Assembly (NCBI GenBank): GCA_041737175.1
Contig: JBGSSF010000035.1
Location: 10,232 to 74,231, forward strand
Source: Bacteroidales bacterium
GTDB lineage: Bacteria > Bacteroidota > Bacteroidia > Bacteroidales > UBA10428
Reading direction: 5' to 3'
DNA: 64,000 bases
Part shown: positions 2,902 through 62,502 of the stretch, piece after piece
How positions within the stretch are numbered: position 1 is the first letter of the stretch
How the letters are laid out: every line of letters begins with the position of its first letter
The notes under the pieces: model-generated
Told to the model about the DNA's origin: nothing
Seen by the model: only the letters and a program-made list of their open reading frames with translations
Database searches by the model: none
Translations under genes and position numbers: made by a program

Positions 2902-5900
2902 TTAAATCTGCGAAATCAGTTGAAGATGTTTTAAAGCACTCAGATTAGCCCTTTCATCATCAATAACTTCCTGCAATAATTTCCGACTCCTGGTTTTATT
3001 TCCCAGTCCCAGTTCTCCCAGCCCAATCAGATATTTACAAAGCAGGTTATTCCGTTTATCCAAATCGCTATCCCAAATCAATAAATCCGGAAGTGAAATA
3101 GCAAAATAGTCGATTTCAATAGGATCGTTAAAATGGGCTTCACCAAAATCAACCAGTTTTCTGAAACATTCGAGCGCTTCTTTTTCCTTACCGATTTTCT
3201 GCAAGGCCAAACCCTGGTAAAAAGTGATATCGGGTTGCTGGTCATTGTAAAACATGGCTGCCGAAACCACGTTTAAACCGGATGTCGCTTCTATCCATGC
3301 ATTATGTGCATTCTGCATTTGGCCTGCTTTTTCGTAAGCTACTCCCAGCCAGAAAAACAACTCGTTCTCTTTTGCGCCATAAAGTTTTCCTTCTCCAAGA
3401 TTTTCGGGATAATGTTGTACTTTCAACAACAGACTTATTGCCTTTCCCGGGTCATTGTCGCGAATAGCTTTTTTTGCCATGGCAATCAAGCTGAAAACAT
3501 ATTGACTGGTTACCTTTCCTTCTCCCCCTTCCCAAGGATGAAACCTGCGCGACATGATCATTTCGAAGGCTCTTTCGTACTCACCCAAAACATTCAGCAA
3601 ACTGGCCTGTTCAAGATACAAATCATCGCGATAGTTAACCAATTCAGGATAATTCTGTAAAAAAGCCAGCCTTTCTTCCGGGTTGCGGTTGAGACGCTTG
3701 TAAAGCTGGTCGAGTTCCATCAGGATACGGGCATCACAAGTGTCGATACTGAATGCTTTCTCGAGTAATTCAACTGCCCTTTTAGGATCATGAAGTTTAT
3801 TAAAACAGGCCAGCGCCAGGTTTCTGAGTGATGTTGGGAAAGTTCCGTTTAACTCCACTGCTTTCTCCCAACACGATATGGCTGCAATATAGTTCTTAAA
3901 TGCGTACCATAAATTTCCAAGATAATACAAAGCCTTATCATCGGCAGGGCTCACGCTGATTGCCCATTCCAATGCTACCACCGATTCGGGTTGGTTTGGG
4001 AAACCGAAATCAGGCGAAACCGAAGCTGCTTTATTTAATGTTTCCGGCCATACACCATGCATTCCAGCCCTCATCTCGAACCAGGCTTTGTAATAAAGCG
4101 CCATAGGGTAAATTCTGTCTTTATCCTGTAAATCAATTCCTGTAGAAATAACTTCAATGGCATCGTGGTAAAGCCCGGCCCAGGCATAGTCAAGAGCAAA
4201 TTCAACATAGTTGTGAATATTTCCCCTGATGAGCTTATTCATCTCGCCAAGTACCTGTTTGTTGCCTGTCAGTTTGAATTTTTCGTAATATAAACCGAAA
4301 TTAAAGCGGTCGATAACGATTGATTCGTCACATAGATTCAGCGCTTCTTCCATTCTTCCTGAATACCTGAGAATACTCGTTTTTAACTGGCGGGCTTTGT
4401 GGTTGTGCCAGTTTCTTAATAAGGAACGGTTTATATGGTCGAGTGCTTCGTCCAGCCGGCCAAACATGGTATCAATACATGCAACCTGAAAATAGCCGCT
4501 GTCCATCCATGCCGCATTCCAAACCGACTTGTAAAAGTATTTATAGGCCTCATCATATTGCCCCAGAAAACTGTTAGCCAGACCCAGATTGAAGAGTGCT
4601 TCACCATCGTAAGGATTTGGATTACGTTCGGTAACGGTATTAACTGCCTTTGTTACATAATCTTTTGCTTTAATGAATTGTCCGCGACGCAGATACCACA
4701 AACCCAGTGCGTTGTTACAACGATAATCTCCCGGATCGCGGGCAAGCGCTTCTTCGTAATACGGGCGTGGGTCGTAGGTGGCATGACGGTACTGCTCGAT
4801 GTGATGGCCGGTTAAAAACAACTGTTCATTGCTTTCAATTTCGGAAGGTTTTTTTGCAGCTTTAGCCGGCTCGGGTAGAATATTCTCCTTCCCGGAATCC
4901 GGTGAATATTCAGCCAAAATTTTCCCTTCAGCCGAACTTACCTTCAATTTCAGATATTCAGGTTTACAATCCACCGGAGTGGCCATTCTTTTATGATACG
5001 AAACCGAAGGATCAAAATTGAATTTTTCTTCCGAAAGTTTTTCATTTCCATACATCAGAATTACTCTGCCCTGCTGATATACACCCGAAGTAAAGACTTT
5101 AATTTCAATTTCACTTTTATCCAGTTCAAGATTCACCAATGCTTCTTTTGTGGCGCATTTTACAACCCCCACATCGCGGTATGGAATAAAGTACTGCGTG
5201 AATGTTTTTTCCTCATTTGGCATTAACCATGAAAAGTCGGGCTGATTATCGGTATAAACGCCACACATCAGCTCAATGTAAGGTCCATCTTCGTCGGTCA
5301 GATTGCGGTCCCAGGCCTGGCCGAAATCTCCGTGTCCCCAGGTCCATTGCTTTTTACCGGGCGAAACATGATGATTGGCCACATGGATCAAACCGCCCCT
5401 AGTATCATTTTCATAACCGCCAACAAAATCGTAACCGGAGTTGATGGCCATGTAAGATGTGGGAACCGGGATATTTTTATACCGCGAAATATCAGTTCCG
5501 GGCGAGTAGTCCACTTTGTAGTAAGTTCCCTTTGCAATGGGAAATTCAGAAACATCGCGTTTACCATGATCGAATACTGCATAAACATCGGGTGGAAAAA
5601 CCGACTGGTATTCATCGTTCACTTTTACTGCCGGGTTGGCCCACCATAAAAAGGTTTGCGGGAAACTGGTACGGTTATAAAGTTTAACTTTTATTTCGAG
5701 GTACGCTTTGTCGGGGTGCAATGTAAAACCAGCCATACCACGGGTCCGGAACATGCGTTCCAGTTCGTTGCACCAAACGGTAACACTTCCGTCACTGTTA
5801 TTTTCGATGCAAAAATCGGTGGGTTCGAAAGTTGAAGGACGGTGATGCTGTGGCCAGTTAAACTCAATTCCGCCTGAAATCCAGGGACCTGTTAACCCTA

Positions 5901-15667: not shown

Positions 15668-15941
15668 AACAAATTTGCAAATAATCTTTTTTGGCCAGTT
15701 CCAGATTCTCTCTCATGATGATGCTTTGGTTGCAATGATGAATACCACAATAAACAACCGGTTATTCAGACTTTGTGAATTTTCAATGTAAAATATATTT
15801 TAATGCGACATATTTTTTTTAAACAAAATATTTTTTGTAACTTTTTAATCCTTTTCAAAAAAGCGGCTTATCAGGCTGCAGGCAATGAACAATTAATTAT
15901 TGTGCGTGTTTATTTGCTTAAACCAACTTAATATCTTGCTT

Positions 15942-17981
15942 ATGAAAAGAAATCTACTTTTTCTATCAAACCTTCTGATGTTCTCCCTGATTTTGATGCA
16001 GGGGGTGAGGTCACAGACAACGGTGCTTGACATTATTGTCGGCAGTGCGGATCATGACACCCTGGAAGCCGCAGTTATTGCGGCCGGACTGGACGACGAC
16101 CTTGCAGGGACAGGGCCTTTCACAGTTTTTGCTCCAACCGATGCGGCCTTTAAAGCATTGCCCCTGAATGCACTGGATGCCTTGCTGGAGGATCCGGAAG
16201 GATTCCTGGCTGATCTGCTGCTAAATCATGTGGTAAACGGAACACTGATGGCGGGGGATCTCACAAATGAACAGGTTCTGACAACTTTGCTGGATGAAGA
16301 TGTAACGGTGACCATCAATGATGATGGAGTATTTATTAACAATGCAATGGTCACTGTCGCTGACCTGGAGGCCGATAACGGTGTTGTGCATGTGGTAGAT
16401 GCCGTGATCATTCCTAGTTTTAATACCGTTATGGATATTATTATATTCAGTCCTGAACATGATACACTGGAACTTGCTGTGGGTTTAGCCGAACTGGATG
16501 ATGACCTAGTCGGGGAAGGACCTTTCACCGTCTTCGCACCCACCGATGCTGCTTTCAAGGCACTGCCCGCAGGAACAATTGAAGCGTTGCTGGGAGATCC
16601 CACCGGTGACCTGGCCGATATTCTCCTCTATCACGTTGCAGCCGGGAAGGTCATGTCTGGAGATCTGTCTGACGGACAGGAAATTGTTACTCTGCTGGAC
16701 AGGGAGGTTAACGTAACCATTAGCGAGGAGGGTGTCTTCATCAATAACGCGAAAGTTTTTGTCGCAGATATTGTTGCTGACAATGGCGTGGTTCATGTGT
16801 TGGATGCCGTTTTGATCCCGCAGGCCGAAACGGTTGTGGATATTATTGTAGGTAGTGCTGCGCACGACACTCTCGAAGCTGCCGTGATTGCTGCCGAATT
16901 GGCTGACGACCTGGCAGGCGAAGGCCCCTTTACCGTTTTTGCACCCACCGATGCTGCTTTCAAGGCACTTCCCGCAGGAACAATTGAAGCGTTGCTGGAA
17001 GATCCCACCGGTGACCTGGCCGATATTCTCCTTTATCACGTTGCAACCGGGAAGGTCATGTCTGGAGATCTGTCTGACGGACAGGAAATTACCACACTCC
17101 TGGGCAAGGATGTTACCGTAACCATTAACGAGGACGGTGTCTTTATCAATGATGCCAAAGTCATTCTTGCTGACCTGCTTGCCGATAATGGTGTAGTGCA
17201 TGTTATTGATGCCGTGTTGATACCTGCAGTCGAAGAGGCCGCTTTCCCGATCGACTTTGAAACCGAAACGGATGCCGTGTGGGAAGTTTTTGCCAATGGC
17301 ACAGGAAGTGCGTCTGATTTTGAAGTAATCGCCAATCCGGATAAATCAGGCGTCAATACTTCGGACAATGTACTGAAATTCGTTGTTAATGCCAATGCAG
17401 ATACCTATGCAGGCGCTTTCTCGAATTCCTATGCACCCGTCGAATTCACCCAGTCTTCCCATACCATTACCCTGATGGTCTGGAAATCCGTAATCAGTCC
17501 GGTAGGATTCAAAGTCGAAGCCAGTACGAACGGCGGTCCCGTCACGGAGGTCAAGGTTTCCAATACGGTTACCAACGCATGGGAATTGCTCACGTTTAAC
17601 ATGAGTGCATGCATCGGCTATTCCTATGACAGGATCGTGATATTCCCTGATTTTCCGGAAACCAGGACAGCCGGTACCACGGTTTATATTGATAACATTG
17701 AGAGAAAAGAGGAAGCTACCGGAATACTGAACCTGGACGAAGATTCCAAGGGTCTTACCATCTACCCGAATCCGGCTTCCGGTTATATCCGGCTGTCAGG
17801 TCTCGGGGACCTGAAGGAAGGGATGATGCGGATCATTAATACCGGCGGCGTAGAAGTTGAGAACCGTTTTGTAAAGGATCTCTCTGGCACTATCGATGTC
17901 AGCAGGCTTGATCAGGGGGCCTATTTCCTGATACTTGAGTCCGGAAGCAACCGTTATACCGGAAAACTGTTCAAAAAGTAA
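15942..17981 (+). CDS. secreted protein with three tandem FAS1 (fasciclin) domains, a beta-sandwich domain and a T9SS C-terminal sorting domain
   Basis: The track ORF opens at a TTG (15900). The ATG at 15942 gives MKRNLLFLSNLLMFSLILMQG, a signal peptide. There are three ~135-aa repeats with GPFTVFAPTDAAFKALP and NGVVHV.DAV.IP. The C-terminus LTIYPNPASGYIRL...YTGKLFKK is a type-A T9SS CTD. Confidence 0.8.
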   Translation: MKRNLLFLSNLLMFSLILMQGVRSQTTVLDIIVGSADHDTLEAAVIAAGLDDDLAGTGPFTVFAPTDAAFKALPLNALDALLEDPEGFLADLLLNHVVNGTLMAGDLTNEQVLTTLLDEDVTVTINDDGVFINNAMVTVADLEADNGVVHVVDAVIIPSFNTVMDIIIFSPEHDTLELAVGLAELDDDLVGEGPFTVFAPTDAAFKALPAGTIEALLGDPTGDLADILLYHVAAGKVMSGDLSDGQEIVTLLDREVNVTISEEGVFINNAKVFVADIVADNGVVHVLDAVLIPQAETVVDIIVGSAAHDTLEAAVIAAELADDLAGEGPFTVFAPTDAAFKALPAGTIEALLEDPTGDLADILLYHVATGKVMSGDLSDGQEITTLLGKDVTVTINEDGVFINDAKVILADLLADNGVVHVIDAVLIPAVEEAAFPIDFETETDAVWEVFANGTGSASDFEVIANPDKSGVNTSDNVLKFVVNANADTYAGAFSNSYAPVEFTQSSHTITLMVWKSVISPVGFKVEASTNGGPVTEVKVSNTVTNAWELLTFNMSACIGYSYDRIVIFPDFPETRTAGTTVYIDNIERKEEATGILNLDEDSKGLTIYPNPASGYIRLSGLGDLKEGMMRIINTGGVEVENRFVKDLSGTIDVSRLDQGAYFLILESGSNRYTGKLFKK

Positions 17982-22535: not shown

Positions 22536-22635
22536 CCCCTTCGGGAGTACTCGCACGCACGGGCCAACACACTAAAGCCGCTCAATAAGCATTGGGATTA
22601 CTCGCTTCGCTCGTGATCCGCTAGGGTGGGGGTTT

Positions 22636-22764
22636 CACAAGCCTAATGATGCGCAGCTGCGCTGCATTCATTTTTTATTTGCTTCCACCAGGATGGCACA
22701 GGAAGTGCCCTCCTGGTGTAAACAAATAAAAAATGCCGCCAAAGGCGGCATCATTAGTCTTGTG
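22636..22764. repeat. 129-bp nested palindromic element abutting the 3' end of tRNA-Arg
   Basis: Outer arms are CACAAGCCTAATGATGC and GCATCATTAGTCTTGTG. Each side carries its own GC hairpin (GCGCAGCTGCGC; GCCGCCAAAGGCGGC). The central 31-bp stem at 22669..22735 has 3 mismatches and an AGGAA loop. Confidence 0.7.
22725..22752 (-). terminator. rho-independent terminator of tRNA-Arg
   Basis: The minus strand reads GATGCCGCC-TTT-GGCGGCATTTTTTATTTG immediately after the tRNA 3' end. Confidence 0.55.
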
Positions 22765-22836
22765 ACCCCGGAGGGATTCAAACCCCCGACTTTCAGAACC
22801 GGAATCTGACGTTCTATTCAGCTGAACTACGGGGCC
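22763..22836 (-). tRNA. tRNA-Arg (anticodon CCG)
   Basis: Folded by hand as a 74-nt cloverleaf: acceptor GGCCCCG/CGGGGTC, D stem GTTC/GAAC, anticodon stem TCAGA/TCTGA with loop TTCCGGT, T stem GGGGG/CCCTC. No encoded CCA. Confidence 0.9.
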
Positions 22837-22842
22837 GGAATG

Positions 22843-22870
22843 GTAGGGACAGGTCGCGACCTGTCCCTAC
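22843..22870. repeat. REP copy 1 (28-bp perfect palindrome)
   Basis: GTAGGGACAGGTCG|CGACCTGTCCCTAC, 6 nt upstream of the tRNA-Arg 5' end. Confidence 0.9.
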
Positions 22871-22885
22871 CTACAATCATGTGCG

Positions 22886-22893
22886 CAAAAATA
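22886..22893 (-). promoter_or_regulatory. -7 box candidate (TATTTTTG) for tRNA-Arg
   Basis: The minus strand reads TATTTTTG, matching TAnnTTTG, about 50 nt upstream of the mature tRNA 5' end. This would place REP copy 1 in the transcribed leader. Confidence 0.3.
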
Positions 22894-22937
22894 GAGAAAA
22901 TTGGGGGAAGGACAAATAAAATGCACGGAATATTAAT

Positions 22938-22983
22938 GTAGGGACAGGTCGCTTTGTAGGGACAGGTCGCGACCTGTCCCTAC
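22938..22983. repeat. REP half-copy plus REP copy 2
   Basis: GTAGGGACAGGTCGC (half copy), then ttt, then the full 28-bp palindrome at 22956..22983. Confidence 0.9.
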
Positions 22984-23081
22984 GTAGACGATCATCTTTA
23001 TAAAATTTGCAAATCAGAATTGAAATATTTGATTAATTTTATTTAATAATGATGGTATTATGTTAAAGGCAATTTTATATA

Positions 23082-23621
23082 ATGAAAAATCGCAAACCAA
23101 ACAGATTACGGGGATTTGATTATTCATCGGATAATCTATATTTTGTTACGGCCTGTGTACATAACAGGATTTGTTGTTTCGGGGAAATCGTAGGGACAGG
23201 GCGCGACCTGTCCCTACCATGTCTCGACATATCCTCTCGACATATGATTTTAAATGAATGTGGTAAAATCGCAGAAAAGCAATGGTTTTGGATGGAAGAA
23301 CAATATCCATACATTGTTTTGCATGAATTTGTTGTTATGCCCAATCATATTCATGGGATAATTGAAATAATTCGTTCACGCGTTGTAGGGACAGGTCGCG
23401 ACCTGTCCCTACAGAAAATCAAATCATTATCGGAATTAATGGGGGCATATAAAACGACAGTTTCAAAACAACTACATTCGTCCGGATTTATTGATTTCAA
23501 TTGGCAAAGGTCGTTTTATGACCATATTATTCGCAATCAAAAATCGTACGAATCAATCTCGGAATATATTGTGAACAATCCATCAAATTGGGATCAGGAT
23601 GATTTTTTTACGAACAAATGA
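23082..23621 (+). CDS. IS200-like Y1 (HUH) transposase / REP-associated tyrosine transposase (RAYT)-like
   Basis: 179 aa. N-terminus RLRGFDYSSDNLYFVTACVHNR, HUH motif MPNHIHGII, catalytic-Tyr context NWQRSFYDHIIRN. REP palindromes flank it on both sides. Confidence 0.8.
   Translation: MKNRKPNRLRGFDYSSDNLYFVTACVHNRICCFGEIVGTGRDLSLPCLDISSRHMILNECGKIAEKQWFWMEEQYPYIVLHEFVVMPNHIHGIIEIIRSRVVGTGRDLSLQKIKSLSELMGAYKTTVSKQLHSSGFIDFNWQRSFYDHIIRNQKSYESISEYIVNNPSNWDQDDFFTNK
23190..23217. repeat. REP copy 3, inside the RAYT CDS (1 mismatch)
   Basis: GTAGGGACAGGGCGCGACCTGTCCCTAC, read in frame as VGTGRDLSL (codons 37-45). Confidence 0.9.
23385..23412. repeat. REP copy 4, inside the RAYT CDS (perfect)
   Basis: In the same codon phase as copy 3. 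It encodes VGTGRDLSL (codons 102-110), ten residues after the HUH motif. Confidence 0.9.
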
Positions 23622-23633
23622 ACGAATCGATAT

Positions 23634-23661
23634 GTAGGGACAGGTCGCGACCTGTCCCTAC
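23634..23661. repeat. REP copy 5 (perfect)
   Basis: Begins 13 nt after the RAYT stop. Its last 4 nt overlap the GH43 gene and supply that gene's TAG stop codon. Confidence 0.9.
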
Positions 23662-25265
23662 GGTTTATATTCAAACCAATCAAAGTACGCCGGGGTTGCT
23701 TTGGATTTGGCATTCCCTTCGGCAAACATTCCCAAATATACCCCGGTAAAACCTCCGGCTACTTCGGATGACAGATACCTTGATTCCATTTTGCCGGCCG
23801 GAATGAATTCACTGGCCCCTTCCGGTAAATAGCTGAACGTATACCATAACGGTTCAGCAGTTATCTTGATTTGAACAGGTCCCGCCGGCAACGGGGCTTT
23901 AAAGGCAACATGCTTCAGGTTGCCGATCCGGTAACTTAAAGTAATAAATTTCTTTTCTCCGTCCCTGATAATATGTAGGTCATAGTGATGCTTTTCATTC
24001 ATCAACACGGTAATCCCCGCCGTTTCGCCTTCGGCAGACGGTTCAAATTCCAGTTTTGCCGTTGCCGTGCAGTTAAAATGCTGCTGGCGCCTGCCCACAA
24101 AGGCAGGGGAGGATGACTGGTCAAGGGTCACGGAATTTCCTGCCAGGGTCAGAAATCCGGGTCTTTCAGCCAGTGACCATGTTGCCGGATCAGGATTCCG
24201 CAGGAAATTCCAGCAAAGGTTCAGTTGCGATTTATCAAATTCATCACGCACCAATGGCCGGGCAACGGAAACCAGGGGAAGCGTTTTAACCTTGATATCA
24301 GGACTGACGATATCATCAGCACTCACAACAGGCCATCCCTGCGCATTCCAGGTAACGGGTGTTAAAAAGGTTTCCCTGCCCAGGTGGTGAAAATCTCCGC
24401 CGGCCTTCCGGAATGCAAGGAATACCATCCACCATGAGCCATCATGCGCTTCAATGATGTCGGCATGCCCGGTTCCCTGAACCTGCAGATATTGTCCGGG
24501 TAAACCCCTGTGGGTGAGTATGGGATTGTCGGGATTGGATTCATAAGGCCCCCAGATGCTTTTACTCCGGGCAATGGTCTCCATGTGACCGTATTCGGTG
24601 CCTCCCTCGGCGATCATCAGGTAGTACCAACCGTTGATCCTATAAATATGGGGCGCTTCGGGGTAACGGCCTCCCGTCCCTCCCCAGATATGCCTTATGG
24701 GTGAAAGGATATCGCCGGTTGCAAGGTCTATCTCCGAAAGGGCGATGCCGGTTTTCCCGTCAGCCATGGCATTGGTAACCAGATAATTCTTGCCATCATC
24801 ATCAAAAAACAGGGTGGGATCGATACCTCCCTGATTGACCCATACGGGCTCAGACCATTCTCCCGCAGGATCCTGTGTATGCACATAAAAGTTACCCTTG
24901 CCGGATACATTCGTCGTTACCATGTAAAACGTGCCCTTGTTGTACCGGATCGTAGGGGCGTAAATGCCCCCGGAGCTACGGCATTTGTCGAGCGGCAGCT
25001 GTGAATTTCGGGTAAGACAATACCCGATATGCTCCCAGTTGATCAGATCCTTGCTGTGATATACCGGTACACCCGGGAAGTACTCAAAGGTGCTGGTCAC
25101 CAGGTAATAATCATCGCCCACCCTGCAAACGCTGGGATCGGGATTGAAACCGGGGATGACGGGGTTGGGGAGGGTGGTGGAAGGAGCAACAACATCGCCC
25201 TGTTGGGTATGTATTGAGAAAATAACACCAAACAGGAAGATGAAATTCAAAAAGAGTGATTTCAT
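23658..25265 (-). CDS. GH43 glycoside hydrolase (beta-xylosidase/alpha-L-arabinofuranosidase type) with a C-terminal beta-sandwich domain
   Basis: The ATG at 25265 gives MKSLFLNFIFLFGVIFSIHTQ, a signal peptide. GFNPDPSVCRVGDDYYLV, APTIRY and YLMIAEGGT are GH43 five-bladed propeller motifs. The C-terminal ~200 aa look like a GH43_C2/LamG domain. Confidence 0.85.
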   Translation of the reverse strand: MKSLFLNFIFLFGVIFSIHTQQGDVVAPSTTLPNPVIPGFNPDPSVCRVGDDYYLVTSTFEYFPGVPVYHSKDLINWEHIGYCLTRNSQLPLDKCRSSGGIYAPTIRYNKGTFYMVTTNVSGKGNFYVHTQDPAGEWSEPVWVNQGGIDPTLFFDDDGKNYLVTNAMADGKTGIALSEIDLATGDILSPIRHIWGGTGGRYPEAPHIYRINGWYYLMIAEGGTEYGHMETIARSKSIWGPYESNPDNPILTHRGLPGQYLQVQGTGHADIIEAHDGSWWMVFLAFRKAGGDFHHLGRETFLTPVTWNAQGWPVVSADDIVSPDIKVKTLPLVSVARPLVRDEFDKSQLNLCWNFLRNPDPATWSLAERPGFLTLAGNSVTLDQSSSPAFVGRRQQHFNCTATAKLEFEPSAEGETAGITVLMNEKHHYDLHIIRDGEKKFITLSYRIGNLKHVAFKAPLPAGPVQIKITAEPLWYTFSYLPEGASEFIPAGKMESRYLSSEVAGGFTGVYLGMFAEGNAKSKATPAYFDWFEYKP

Positions 25266-25300
25266 AGTATTGGATTTAGTTTGTTTATTTTTTAATATCA

Positions 25301-25350
25301 CCCTTGAAGGGTCCCCAGACCCTTCAAGGGTCTAAGGACCGCTTGAAGGG
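25301..25350. repeat. hairpin repeat, CCCTTGAAGGGTC family (locus A)
   Basis: CCCTTGAAGGGTC-ccca-GACCCTTCAAGGG followed by TCTAAGGACCGCTTGAAGGG. A 32-mer here recurs at 37700..37731 with 1 mismatch. Confidence 0.8.
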
Positions 25351-35127: not shown

Positions 35128-35212
35128 TGTTGTGATTGTTGTGATTGTTGTGATTGTTGTGGTTGTTGTGATGGTTGTGATGGTTGTGATGGTTGTGGGT
35201 TGTGGGTTGTGT
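35128..35212. repeat. GT-rich degenerate microsatellite array downstream of dprA
   Basis: (GTGATTGTT)x3, GTGGTTGTT, (GTGATGGTT)x3, (GTGGGTT)x2. It is complementary in composition to the array at 36365..36436. Confidence 0.85.
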
Positions 35213-36364: not shown

Positions 36365-36436
36365 CCAATAACTAACTTATAACTTACAACCTACAACCTA
36401 CAACTTACAACCTACAACAACCACAACAACCACAAC
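36365..36436. repeat. CA-rich degenerate microsatellite array upstream of dprA
   Basis: CTTACAACCTACAACCTACAACTTACAACCTACAACAACCACAACAACCACAACC. Its reverse complement is (GGTTGT)n-like, mirroring 35128..35212. Confidence 0.85.
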
Positions 36437-36931
36437 CTACTTCTCACCCTTCCTCTTCCACTCCCCCAGCGCATGCAATAGCATATCCCGCTCGTGTGCG
36501 GTAAGTGCCGTTATGGAAACGGGCGGATACTTGGCAATGCCCATGCCGGTTCGCCTTAAAAGAGTGATACTTTCCCGGTATCTCATGAAAAAGGATTTTA
36601 TGTCATAACCGGCAAAATCTTTTTTCGGGATTTCGATGGAATTCTTTTTTGAAGTGAAGATATTGGGAGAGAAGAAGCGCAATACTATTTTATCGGATTC
36701 ATCGTTGTAATAGATGTAATGGTAATTTCTGAAGGAGTTGTAGATGTTCAGAATCACATAGGCTATACCAACAAAGAGAGCCAGAAGGCTGTTTTTTATG
36801 CCCTTGAAGATATCACCGACCGGCAGCATCAGGAGTGCAATAATAACTAACGCCACAATGATTATGGTGATGAAACTGCTCAGGTTCTTACGGATTATGG
36901 TTCTTTTTATATCGATGATCATGACAGGCAA
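36437..36931 (-). CDS. hypothetical two-TM membrane protein
   Basis: 164 aa. Two N-terminal TM helices and a soluble C-terminal domain. No family recognised. Confidence 0.5.
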   Translation of the reverse strand: MPVMIIDIKRTIIRKNLSSFITIIIVALVIIALLMLPVGDIFKGIKNSLLALFVGIAYVILNIYNSFRNYHYIYYNDESDKIVLRFFSPNIFTSKKNSIEIPKKDFAGYDIKSFFMRYRESITLLRRTGMGIAKYPPVSITALTAHERDMLLHALGEWKRKGEK

Positions 36932-62424: not shown

Positions 62425-62502
62425 TACTTCATCACTTCATCACTTCATCACTTCATCACCCCTTCACCCAATCACCCCATCACTTCATCACTTCATTACT
62501 TA
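62425..62502. repeat. octamer tandem repeat (CACTTCAT)n, degenerate
   Basis: TACTTCAT (CACTTCAT)x3 CACCCCTT CACCCAAT CACCCCAT (CACTTCAT)x2 TACTTA. It overlaps the last codons and the stop codon of the methyltransferase gene. Confidence 0.85.

Follow-up and report, generated by a model that had tools for sequence, protein, structure and literature searches.

Introduction

The closest described relatives of the locus analysed here belong to TnpA_REP subclass 2.4 (Quentin et al. 2018, BMC Genomics 19:475, PMC6006769), which corresponds to RAYT Group 4 (Bertels et al. 2017, GBE 9:2110). Proteins of this subclass, which abound in Cyanobacteria and Bacteroidetes and occur in a scattered way in further phyla, have a length of ~180-190 aa and carry the motifs NH[IFV]H (HuH), WQ (W) and YIxNNP (Y) (Quentin et al. 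2018, PMC6006769). Their REPs occur at low genomic copy number and have either a "double foot", GT[AG]G...C[TC]AC, or the form of a canonical long REP. In-frame REP insertions within the gene, at a site after the HUH motif, were described as a "unique feature" of the subclass, and its length heterogeneity was explained by short DNA repeats (Quentin et al. 2018, PMC6006769). The supplementary table of the same study lists GTAGGGACAGGTCGTGACCTGTCC as the REP of the subclass 2.4 entry PaprA01 (ADQ78812.1). Subclass 2.6 is the other one found mostly in Bacteroidetes. We found no biochemistry of any subclass 2.4 enzyme in the literature.

The reference enzyme for comparison is the E. coli TnpA_REP of the REP-BIME system, which falls in subclass 2.2 (Group 2) and is represented by PDB 4ER8 (Ton-Hoang 2012, Messing 2012, Corneloup 2021). 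Residues W94-R104 of this enzyme are listed as GTAG contacts, and N119 is essential (Quentin et al. 2018, PMC6006769). The E. coli REPs are imperfect palindromes with bulges and one foot, and they do not lie inside the gene. They number in the hundreds. A more distant comparison is offered by the IS200/IS605 elements, which are multicopy, mobile as a unit and often accompanied by tnpB.

Here, we describe a region within a 64-kb stretch of a Bacteroidota chromosome (the window) that is very probably a "REPtron", comprising one chromosomal, domesticated HUH/Y1 RAYT of subclass 2.4 (Group 4) and copies of its cognate REP. An earlier note on this DNA had read the region as a RAYT with its hairpin substrates and possibly a new class of REP sequence, the latter because the architecture was believed to be essentially proteobacterial. 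The first half of that reading stands, as the locus is a real REP-RAYT module, with a Y1/HUH RAYT and cognate hairpins; the second half does not, as we find a clean new example of the arrangement described in 2018 rather than a new kind. The published abundance of subclass 2.4 in Cyanobacteria and Bacteroidetes also removes the premise that the architecture had been worked out mainly in Proteobacteria.

Palindrome copies in the window

The palindrome GTAGGGACAGGTCGCGACCTGTCCCTAC is perfect over its 28 bp and is present in five copies and a half copy, all located in 22843-23661. Exact copies start at 22843, 22956, 23385 and 23634, and a further copy at 23190 carries one mismatch (T to G at base 12). 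These copies and positions, together with the half copy, agree with the earlier note, and with as many as 3 mismatches allowed, shuffled sequences give a chance expectation of 0.00 matches. The palindrome is also absent from the rest of the window, as had been noted, and the other ~63 kb remain empty even when up to 6 substitutions are allowed; the source genome may accordingly be REP-poor. As single-stranded DNA, each copy is predicted to form a hairpin with a 12-bp stem and a 4-nt CGCG loop (about -12 kcal/mol, z = -6.8), with GTAG at its 5' end and CTAC at its 3' end, i.e., a double foot.

Upstream of the RAYT gene, copy 1 (22843..22870, exact) lies 6 nt past the 5' end of a tRNA-Arg(ccg) encoded on the minus strand, and copy 2 (22956..22983, exact) is preceded by the half copy (22938..22952, plus strand), the left arm GTAGGGACAGGTCGC, from which TTT separates it. 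This half copy represents an 18-nt arm duplication, and duplications of the same kind adjoin full copies in other genomes. Downstream, copy 5 (23634..23661, exact) begins 13 nt past the RAYT stop codon. It sits between convergent genes and is terminator-like on the plus strand, and on the minus strand it contains the TAG (23658-23660) at which the convergent GH43 ORF stops. The gene is thus flanked by two copies and the half copy upstream and by one copy downstream, all of which start with GTAG. All copies had been described as flanking the ORF, whereas two of the five (23190 and 23385) lie inside it and in frame: copy 3 (23190..23217, one mismatch) before the HUH motif, encoding V37-L45, and copy 4 (23385..23412, exact) after it, encoding V102-L110. 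Their offsets from the ATG, 108 and 303, place both in the same frame, and both read VGTGRDLSL. The five full copies are assigned to neither strand.

At gathering scores, Rfam models match only two tRNAs, with nothing credible on the palindromes or for a structured element beside tRNA-Arg. A scan for sigma-70 promoters gave no enrichment relative to shuffles, using a consensus that is unsuited to Bacteroidota.

The RAYT protein

The RAYT (TnpA_REP) gene (23082..23621, plus strand) encodes 179 aa with a predicted HUH-Y1 fold, and both the ORF and its PNHIHGI motif are as the earlier note had given them. The AlphaFold model has a pLDDT of 84.9 and a pTM of 0.80, and the only low-confidence blocks inside the protein are residues 41-50 and 101-110. 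These overlap the two REP-derived peptides: that of copy 3 is placed in a loop joining predicted strand 34-37 to strand 54-57, and that of copy 4 in a loop leading from the HUH strand to helix 116-133. The best PDB match of the model is 4er8_A (E = 2e-6), TnpA_REP with a bound REP hairpin; next come the TnpA structures of IS608, ISDra2 and IS200. All of the top 30 Foldseek matches are chains of these proteins or of related transposases (probability 1.00, TM 0.39-0.69). When the PDB was searched by sequence, 4er8 was the sole match of the family profile and the sole relevant match of the single sequence.

Alignment with 4er8 assigns roles to the main motifs. The HUH motif, N88-H89-I90-H91 (23343..23354, plus strand), lies on predicted strand 89-96 and aligns with PEHMH; among 120 homologues, H91 is invariant and H89 nearly so. 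The segment W141-R151 (WQRSFYDHIIR; 23502..23534, plus strand) had been taken for the catalytic-tyrosine signature, but it aligns instead with the GTAG-contacting strand W94-R104 of E. coli TnpA_REP. In the full alignment, W141/Q142/Y146/D147/H148/R151/Y162/N166 pair with W94/Q95/W99/E100/H101/R104/Y115/N119, such that four of the GTAG-contact residues (W141, Q142, H148 and R151) are identical and two are replaced (W99 by Y146 and E100 by D147). The presumed catalytic tyrosine is Y162, which lies in Y162-P167 (YIVNNP; 23565..23582, plus strand) on predicted helix 153-164 and is nearly invariant in the alignment of 120 homologues. Within the sequence SEYIVNNP, it is aligned to E. coli TnpA_REP at chain residue Tyr115, which we take to be the catalytic residue of that enzyme, and N166 pairs with N119.

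The ORF matches both Y1_Tnp and RAYT models, as the earlier note had anticipated, but each under its curated cut-off: Pfam PF01797 (Y1_Tnp) gives 19.6 bits against a gathering cut-off of 23, and NCBIfam NF047646 (REP_Tyr_transpos), the best and sole NCBIfam match, gives 52.2 bits against an equivalog cut-off of 80. The Y1_Tnp match covers the C-terminal half only, probably owing to interruption of the domain by the two inserts. Judged by its modelled fold and motifs, the 179-aa ORF is an HUH/Y1 enzyme. Identities to five homologues of about 0.80/0.85/0.53 by codon position indicate purifying selection, which supports a functional resident gene.

Comparison with described systems

The motifs NHIH, WQ and YIVNNP equal those published for subclass 2.4, while the subclass 2.6 motif YIH[QN]NP is not matched by YIVNNP in this protein. 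With its length, its double-foot GTAG...CTAC REP and the in-frame REPs within the gene, the protein fits subclass 2.4 (Group 4), an assignment judged by motifs, REP type and architecture. The new-class reading is likewise countered by the near-identity of the window REP to that of PaprA01, from which it differs by one loop base (CGCG here, CGTG there).

The locus resembles the E. coli system in its HUH-Y1 fold, in the GTAG foot 5' of the hairpin, in contact residues that are conserved or conservatively replaced, and in having one chromosomal gene with REPs on its flanks. The two proteins nonetheless share only about 19% identity and differ in their motifs (NHIH versus DHLH and YIVNNP versus YIHYNP), and unlike the E. 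coli REPs, the window REP is perfectly palindromic and has two feet, occurs at low copy number, and has two copies within the ORF.

By homology with the studied enzymes of E. coli, Stenotrophomonas and Marinomonas, from which we infer the cleavage site and the activity itself, a mechanism can be proposed. The REP hairpin would extrude on single-stranded DNA, where the RAYT would bind the stem and the W141-R151 strand would read the GTAG foot. With a metal held by the two His of NHIH, Y162 would cleave at a dinucleotide beside the hairpin, forming a 5'-phosphotyrosyl link before the strand is rejoined elsewhere; such cleavage and rejoining would disperse or remove REP copies. By analogy with the CT site of the studied enzymes, the CT of the CTAC foot is a speculative candidate for the cleaved dinucleotide. 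Both strands offer the same substrate, since the palindrome is perfect. Copies accumulate around the gene, and two of them are tolerated in frame in poorly predicted loops. Across this clade, the number of REP-derived units at the two in-gene sites ranges from none to five or more, with units gained and lost through in-frame tandem duplication of REP arms.

Dispersal of the 28-mer in other genomes

The earlier note had proposed looking for the 28-mer in related genomes, and it is abundant in genomes other than the source: exact matches lie in at least 120 stretches of metagenome-assembled genomes (MAGs) whose titles name about a dozen higher taxa, in unrelated flanks. Because only exact 28-mers were scanned for, copy numbers are lower bounds, and single assemblies carry at least 3-8 copies each. 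Among the matches listed, 16 of 120 8-kb chunks also carry a homologue of the window RAYT and 104 do not, which amounts to a roughly 50-fold enrichment beside homologues if the expected value is taken from our estimate for a single-copy gene in a 3-4 Mb genome. Dispersed copies avoid genes, with 22% of the listed matches falling in long open frames versus 70% of random positions. A larger mobile unit around the 28-mer, such as a MITE or REPIN, was considered and rejected, as the flanks are unrelated across 124 sites. At these sites, the flanks extend the hairpin by at least 5 nt in 7% of cases versus 0.13% of controls.

These distributions bear on a reading in which the RAYT is inert or irrelevant and the palindromes are kept as host terminators, mRNA stabilisers or protein-binding sites whose spread and variation come from replication slippage and recombination alone. 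Such a reading draws on the terminator-like copy 5 between convergent genes, the resemblance of the arm arrays to slippage products, the lack of dispersed copies in the window, and the host functions ascribed to REPs in the literature. We nevertheless consider it very improbable. The homologue alignments show conservation of the catalytic and GTAG-contact residues, the codon-position identities indicate purifying selection, the 28-mer is enriched beside homologues to the estimated extent given above, and slippage cannot put solo copies at unrelated loci. A RAYT with cognate REPs is instead supported by the fold, the motifs, the conserved GTAG-contact residues, the strong co-location of 28-mer and homologue elsewhere, and the dispersal of the 28-mer as singletons.

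Genomic setting and mobility

The gene is single in the 64-kb window, and its right-hand neighbours are kept in related genomes (GH43 at 75%, a MutS-like gene at 58-80% and LeuRS at 80% identity). On the left flank, the window lacks the FtsX and LolA-like genes found ahead of the RAYT in two other loci (L123 and L124). Carriage by a plasmid or phage was rejected, as the protein is almost absent from both: just 5 plasmid matches were found, all weak (<40% identity) and on large non-mobilisable plasmids, and one phage-labelled record matches the protein. Among 2.9 million viral contigs, there are four solo 28-mers, none with a RAYT. GC content was uninformative about a foreign origin, the ORF having 37% (34% without REPs) versus 45% for the window, with left-hand housekeeping genes that are equally AT-rich.

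An autonomous insertion sequence of the IS200/IS605 type, in which transposase and subterminal hairpins move together as one ~820-bp unit, is less probable still. It finds some support in the fold shared with the TnpA of IS608, ISDra2 and IS200, in the presence of hairpins on both sides of the gene and in the weak Y1_Tnp match, and the presumed logic of hairpin recognition on single-stranded DNA is the same. However, the motifs NHIH and YIVNNP are not the class 1 pair DH[VI]H and Y[IV]ENQ, and the left and right ends of such elements differ from each other, whereas here the same perfect palindrome stands at both ends of the unit and within the gene. Neither multiple copies of the element, unit mobility nor tnpB is seen at the window locus. 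The top sequence and structure matches are to TnpA_REP, the gene is single among constant right-hand neighbours and nearly absent from plasmids and phages, and the 28-mer elsewhere is solo, with flanks unrelated right to its edges.

In-gene REP units among homologues

Units resembling GTGRDLS occur in 108 of the 120 closest homologues, at 0-5 per protein. They fall at two sites, 110 of them preceding the HUH motif and 109 following it, and some homologues lack a unit at one site or the other. The published in-frame site of subclass 2.4 follows the HUH motif; unlike in that description, a second hot spot before the motif is thus used as heavily. The VGTGRDLSL frame is strongly favoured among homologues (239 versus 7), a bias that follows from the presence of a TAG stop in one frame together with the inheritance of units by in-frame tandem duplication (periods: 24, 27 and 33 nt).

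Several observations show that the conserved unit is the DNA and not the peptide. The units are either kept at the DNA level (85-90% nucleotide identity) or decayed (48%), independent of the well-conserved core. Variants of the peptide change together in the way expected from hairpin complementarity (T/L, T/P, N/R and N/H), with 226 of 232 unit instances compatible with pairing. For variant instances alone, the count is 42 of 48 (shuffles: mean 28.6, maximum 36). Both counts take in related proteins and so overstate the number of independent events. In one locus (L122), even the feet are compensated, reading GTAC...GTAC.

The least probable alternative, that VGTGRDLSL is a functional, selected peptide repeat and the extragenic palindromes are by-products or coincidences rather than substrates, has in its favour the frame shared by both in-gene copies and the bias among homologues, but that bias is accounted for above, and the reading sits poorly with copy numbers from 0 to 5 or more, with homologues that have no unit at either site, with units that lie in low-confidence loops and are kept or decayed as DNA, with residue pairs that co-vary by base-pair complementarity, and with identical DNA outside genes in many genomes.

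Read as a REPtron, the window locus would be a compact, intact Group 4 (subclass 2.4) example in a Bacteroidota chromosome. The 2018 description does not set out the pre-HUH hot spot, the hairpin covariation at the protein level or the identity of the REP across phyla. One speculation, which we regard as unlikely, is that in-gene hot spots help the system persist: a gene that carries its own substrate would be a self-contained replicator, with REP and RAYT co-inherited or co-transferred. If true, this could explain why an identical 28-nt REP stands beside homologues that are just 42-69% identical to the window RAYT, in MAGs whose titles span about a dozen higher taxa. Under the same condition, arm arrays could be expanded and contracted in frame by the enzyme or by hairpin slippage, so that RAYT activity would have an intrinsic switch, either length-variable or on/off.

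With a simple, perfect 28-mer as substrate and a small, confidently modelled protein, this pair is suited to a first in vitro study of bulge-free, double-foot REP recognition, and the in-gene copies offer a natural test of whether RAYTs prefer to act in cis. For annotation, VGTGRDLS-type peptide repeats in small "transposases" can be recognised as translated REPs, which push such proteins under Pfam and NCBIfam cut-offs.

REP palindromes within and around the RAYT gene

The 28-bp perfect palindrome GTAGGGACAGGTCGCGACCTGTCCCTAC occurs exactly at window positions 22843, 22956, 23385 and 23634 and with one mismatch at 23190, while a solitary left arm lies at 22938, in agreement with the earlier note; shuffled sequences predict no match at three or fewer mismatches. 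The 14-nt arm is found 11 times versus 0.16 expected, with 11/11 occurrences falling within 22843-23661. Relaxing the search to six substitutions across the 64 kb gave no additional 28-mer, such that the palindrome is indeed confined to this locus in the window, and a generic scan of the 64 kb for hairpins with GTAG feet returned only the known REP sites and one unrelated weak match. In single-stranded form, each copy gives a hairpin with a 12-bp stem and a 4-nt loop (-12.2 kcal/mol, z = -6.8).

The 179-aa ORF that these copies were said to flank (23082-23621, plus strand) is confirmed, and its start matches the MKxRKPNRL start of homologues. The copies at 22843, 22956 and 23634 do flank it, whereas those at 23190 and 23385 lie inside it, at offsets of 108 and 303 from the ATG, and therefore share one reading frame, in which both are read as VGTGRDLSL. 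Directly after the first in-gene copy, we observe two copies of a 10-nt direct repeat, TCTCGACATA, with a 13-nt period (23222-23244), which looks like a slippage footprint within a variable loop.

Fold and subclass of the RAYT protein

The window protein matches both Pfam Y1_Tnp and NCBIfam REP_Tyr_transpos, although in each case below the cut-off (19.6 vs. 23 bits and 52.2 vs. 80 bits, respectively). Searched singly, its sequence has one relevant PDB match, the E. coli TnpA_REP structure 4er8, which is also the sole PDB match of a family profile made from 120 sequences. AlphaFold, given 120 homologues, models the protein with confidence (pLDDT 84.9, pTM 0.80), and the top Foldseek match of the model is 4er8_A, TnpA_REP with a bound REP hairpin, followed by the IS608, ISDra2 and IS200 transposases. 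In HMMER alignments, Y162 pairs with Tyr115 of E. coli TnpA_REP, the catalytic residue of that enzyme, and N166 with the essential N119; on this alignment, the predicted catalytic tyrosine is Y162, in YIVNNP. The stretch previously read as the catalytic-Tyr motif, WQRSFYDHIIR, instead aligns with residues that contact the GTAG foot: W141/Q142/Y146/D147/H148/R151 pair with W94/Q95/W99/E100/H101/R104 of the E. coli enzyme (Quentin et al. 2018, PMC6006769).

When compared to the motif definitions of Quentin et al. 2018, the window protein (NHIH, WQ, YIVNNP) resembles TnpA_REP subclass 2.4, defined by the HuH motif NH[IFV]H, the W motif WQ and the Y motif YIxNNP (mean length of 194 aa), and differs from subclass 2.6, a second subclass found mainly in Bacteroidetes, whose required Y motif is YIH[QN]NP (PMC6006769). 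Subclass 2.4, which corresponds to RAYT Group 4 of Bertels et al. [quoted passage not shown] C[TC]AC 3' (PMC6006769). The supplementary table of the same paper gives GTAGGGACAGGTCGTGACCTGTCC, one loop base apart from the window REP, for the subclass 2.4 entry PaprA01 / ADQ78812.1, along with several further 28-nt double-foot REPs. Group 4 RAYTs were reported from 61 species in 17 classes, with modestly abundant flanking 16-mers (~14 occurrences; Bertels et al. 2017). This subclass is already described, with matching motifs and a near-identical REP. The REP-RAYT reading is therefore right, but the suggested new REP class is not: the module is a genuine REP-RAYT module, placed by its motifs in subclass 2.4 / Group 4. 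Compared with what was described in 2018, three points are modestly new: a hot spot before the HUH motif that is used as much as the site after it, a covariation test at the protein level, and the identical 28-mer beside homologues just 42-69% identical in very distant taxa.

In-gene REP units among homologues

Our protein search recovered 3358 homologues, of which the best 120 were analyzed. These range from 161 to 278 aa, a heterogeneity that arises because the number of REP units varies: the alignment contains from zero to at least five GTGRDLS-type units at two fixed places, after CCFGEIV (before HUH) and after HGIIEINR (after HUH), with a few at the C terminus. Among these closest 120, 108 have at least one unit, and the units are positioned before HUH (110), between HUH and WQ (109) or after the Tyr (5). 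They are read as VGTGRDLSL in 239 cases versus RDRSRPVP in 7, while the third frame contains TAG. In the AlphaFold model, the only low-confidence blocks besides the N-terminal tail, residues 41-50 (pLDDT 53) and 101-110 (pLDDT 56), are the two REP-encoded peptides, which are placed in loops, the first between predicted strands 34-37 and 54-57 and the second between the HUH strand and predicted helix 116-133.

Sequence comparison indicates that it is the DNA palindrome, rather than the peptide, that is conserved. Residues encoded by paired codons co-vary according to base complementarity, as T/L (ACA/CTG), T/P (ACG/CCG), N/R (AAC/CGT) and N/H (AAT/CAT), in 226/232 instances; excluding T/L, 42/48 are compatible versus a shuffle mean of 28.6 and maximum of 36, although these instances are not independent events because related proteins are included. 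At one homologue locus (L122), both feet are altered jointly (GTAC...GTAC). In a comparison with five homologue genes selected by their protein, codon-position identities in the non-REP core are ~0.80/0.85/0.53, a pattern of purifying selection. The REP segments have either been retained (85-90% nucleotide identity) or have decayed (48%).

Adjoining full REP copies, a single arm and a short spacer are repeated in perfect tandem arrays, with periods of 18, 24, 27 and 33 nt that inside ORFs are multiples of three; at 22938, the half copy represents one such unit of 18 nt. Quentin et al. already attributed the variable region to short DNA repeats (PMC6006769). The arrays may be products of the enzyme or of hairpin slippage. 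The L122 locus, on a metagenomic contig, has a 256-aa RAYT homologue with at least five REP-derived units (3001-3771), which lies in a type I restriction-modification operon, between its hsdS-like (Methylase_S) and hsdM-like (N6_Mtase) genes.

Dispersal and linkage across genomes

The earlier note considered that the palindrome might be a dispersed family, and a scan of one genome per species found exact matches in at least 120 stretches. By record title, the matches listed include Bacteroidota (many families), Patescibacteria, Nitrospinota, Fibrobacter, Methylococcales, other Gammaproteobacteria, Spirochaetia, Calditrichia, Ignavibacteria, Aminicenantes, Zixiibacteriota, Planctomycetales, Bacillota and sponge-associated MAGs, and single assemblies contain at least 3-8 exact copies. 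Solo REPs are dispersed: among the matches listed, flanks are unrelated up to the palindrome edge, with T/C preferred at -1 and A/G at +1, and the sites avoid long open frames, with 22% falling within one of 250 aa or longer versus 70% of random positions. REP and gene are also linked, with 16/120 of the listed 8-kb chunks containing the 28-mer also encoding a RAYT homologue (40-69% identity), versus ~0.3/120 by our estimate for a single-copy gene in a 3-4 Mb genome. Plasmids and phages almost lack the protein, with 5 weak matches in 72,556 plasmid records and 1 phage match, and 2.9 million viral contigs contain only four solo 28-mers. A 50%-identity representative library includes 22,589 relatives at E <= 1e-3, many aligning in two or three stretches with inserts between. 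Other GTAG-footed palindromes, of types GTAGGGGCGGCCC and GTAGGCGACCC, occur within tens of bases of the 28-mer at six Nitrospinota and sponge-associated MAG loci (L006, L024, L035, L079, L085, L114), which suggests that several REP families co-exist in those genomes.

By analogy with the E. coli, S. maltophilia and Marinomonas systems, the RAYT would act upon the REP hairpin in single-stranded DNA, with the cleavage dinucleotide presumably chosen via the GTAG foot, and may form a 5'-phosphotyrosyl intermediate with Y162 before the strand is rejoined. The perfect palindrome and its two feet make the substrate identical on both strands.

Genomic context

The RAYT lies among chromosomal genes for housekeeping or glycan use: PabB and tRNA-Arg(ccg) to its left, and a GH43-like gene, a MutS-family gene, a T9SS sorting-domain protein and LeuRS to its right. 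The T9SS sorting domains point to a Bacteroidota host. The same right-hand junction is kept in two related assemblies, with identities to the window of 64% (RAYT), 75% (GH43) and 80% (MutS-like) in L123 and 67% (RAYT), 58% (MutS-like) and 80% (LeuRS) in L124, but the left-hand genes differ, as the FtsX and LolA-like genes found there are absent from the window. The RAYT is thus a long-term resident at a synteny breakpoint, which fits the picture of RAYTs as domesticated and vertically inherited. Upstream of the L123 homologue, whose in-gene REPs are decayed, the REP variant GTAGGGACAGGTCGTGACCTGTCCGTAC plus a 20-nt spacer forms a 48-nt-period tandem array of ~3 units (2297-2420).

Just 6 nt separate the mature 5' end of tRNA-Arg(ccg) (minus strand, 22762-22836) from the first REP copy (spacer plus copy, 22837-22870), which lies upstream of the tRNA and would fall in its leader or promoter region. 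The convergent GH43-like ORF (23658..25301, minus strand) takes its stop codon from the TAG in the GTAG foot of the fifth copy (23658-23660), as noted for GTAG REPs generally (Di Nocera et al. 2013).

Adjoining the 3' end of the tRNA is a ~130-nt nested inverted repeat (22635-22765) in which one pair of arms spans 46 nt (72% complementarity) and an inner one 31 nt (90%). Folded as RNA, 22540-22765 (MFE -95.7 kcal/mol, z = -6.05) includes a bidirectional terminator-like hairpin at 22732-22752. Rfam gave no family at threshold; candidate identities for the element are a complex terminator, a MITE and a small RNA. Elsewhere in the window are tandem repeats of 9 nt x 7.8 (TGTTGTGAT, 35128-35197), 7 nt x 6.4 (AACTTAC, 36374-36440) and 8 nt x 9.5 (ACTTCATC, 62426-62501), and a repeat with a 405-nt period x 1.8 (16488-17229) inside an ORF with a T9SS sorting domain (15900-17981).
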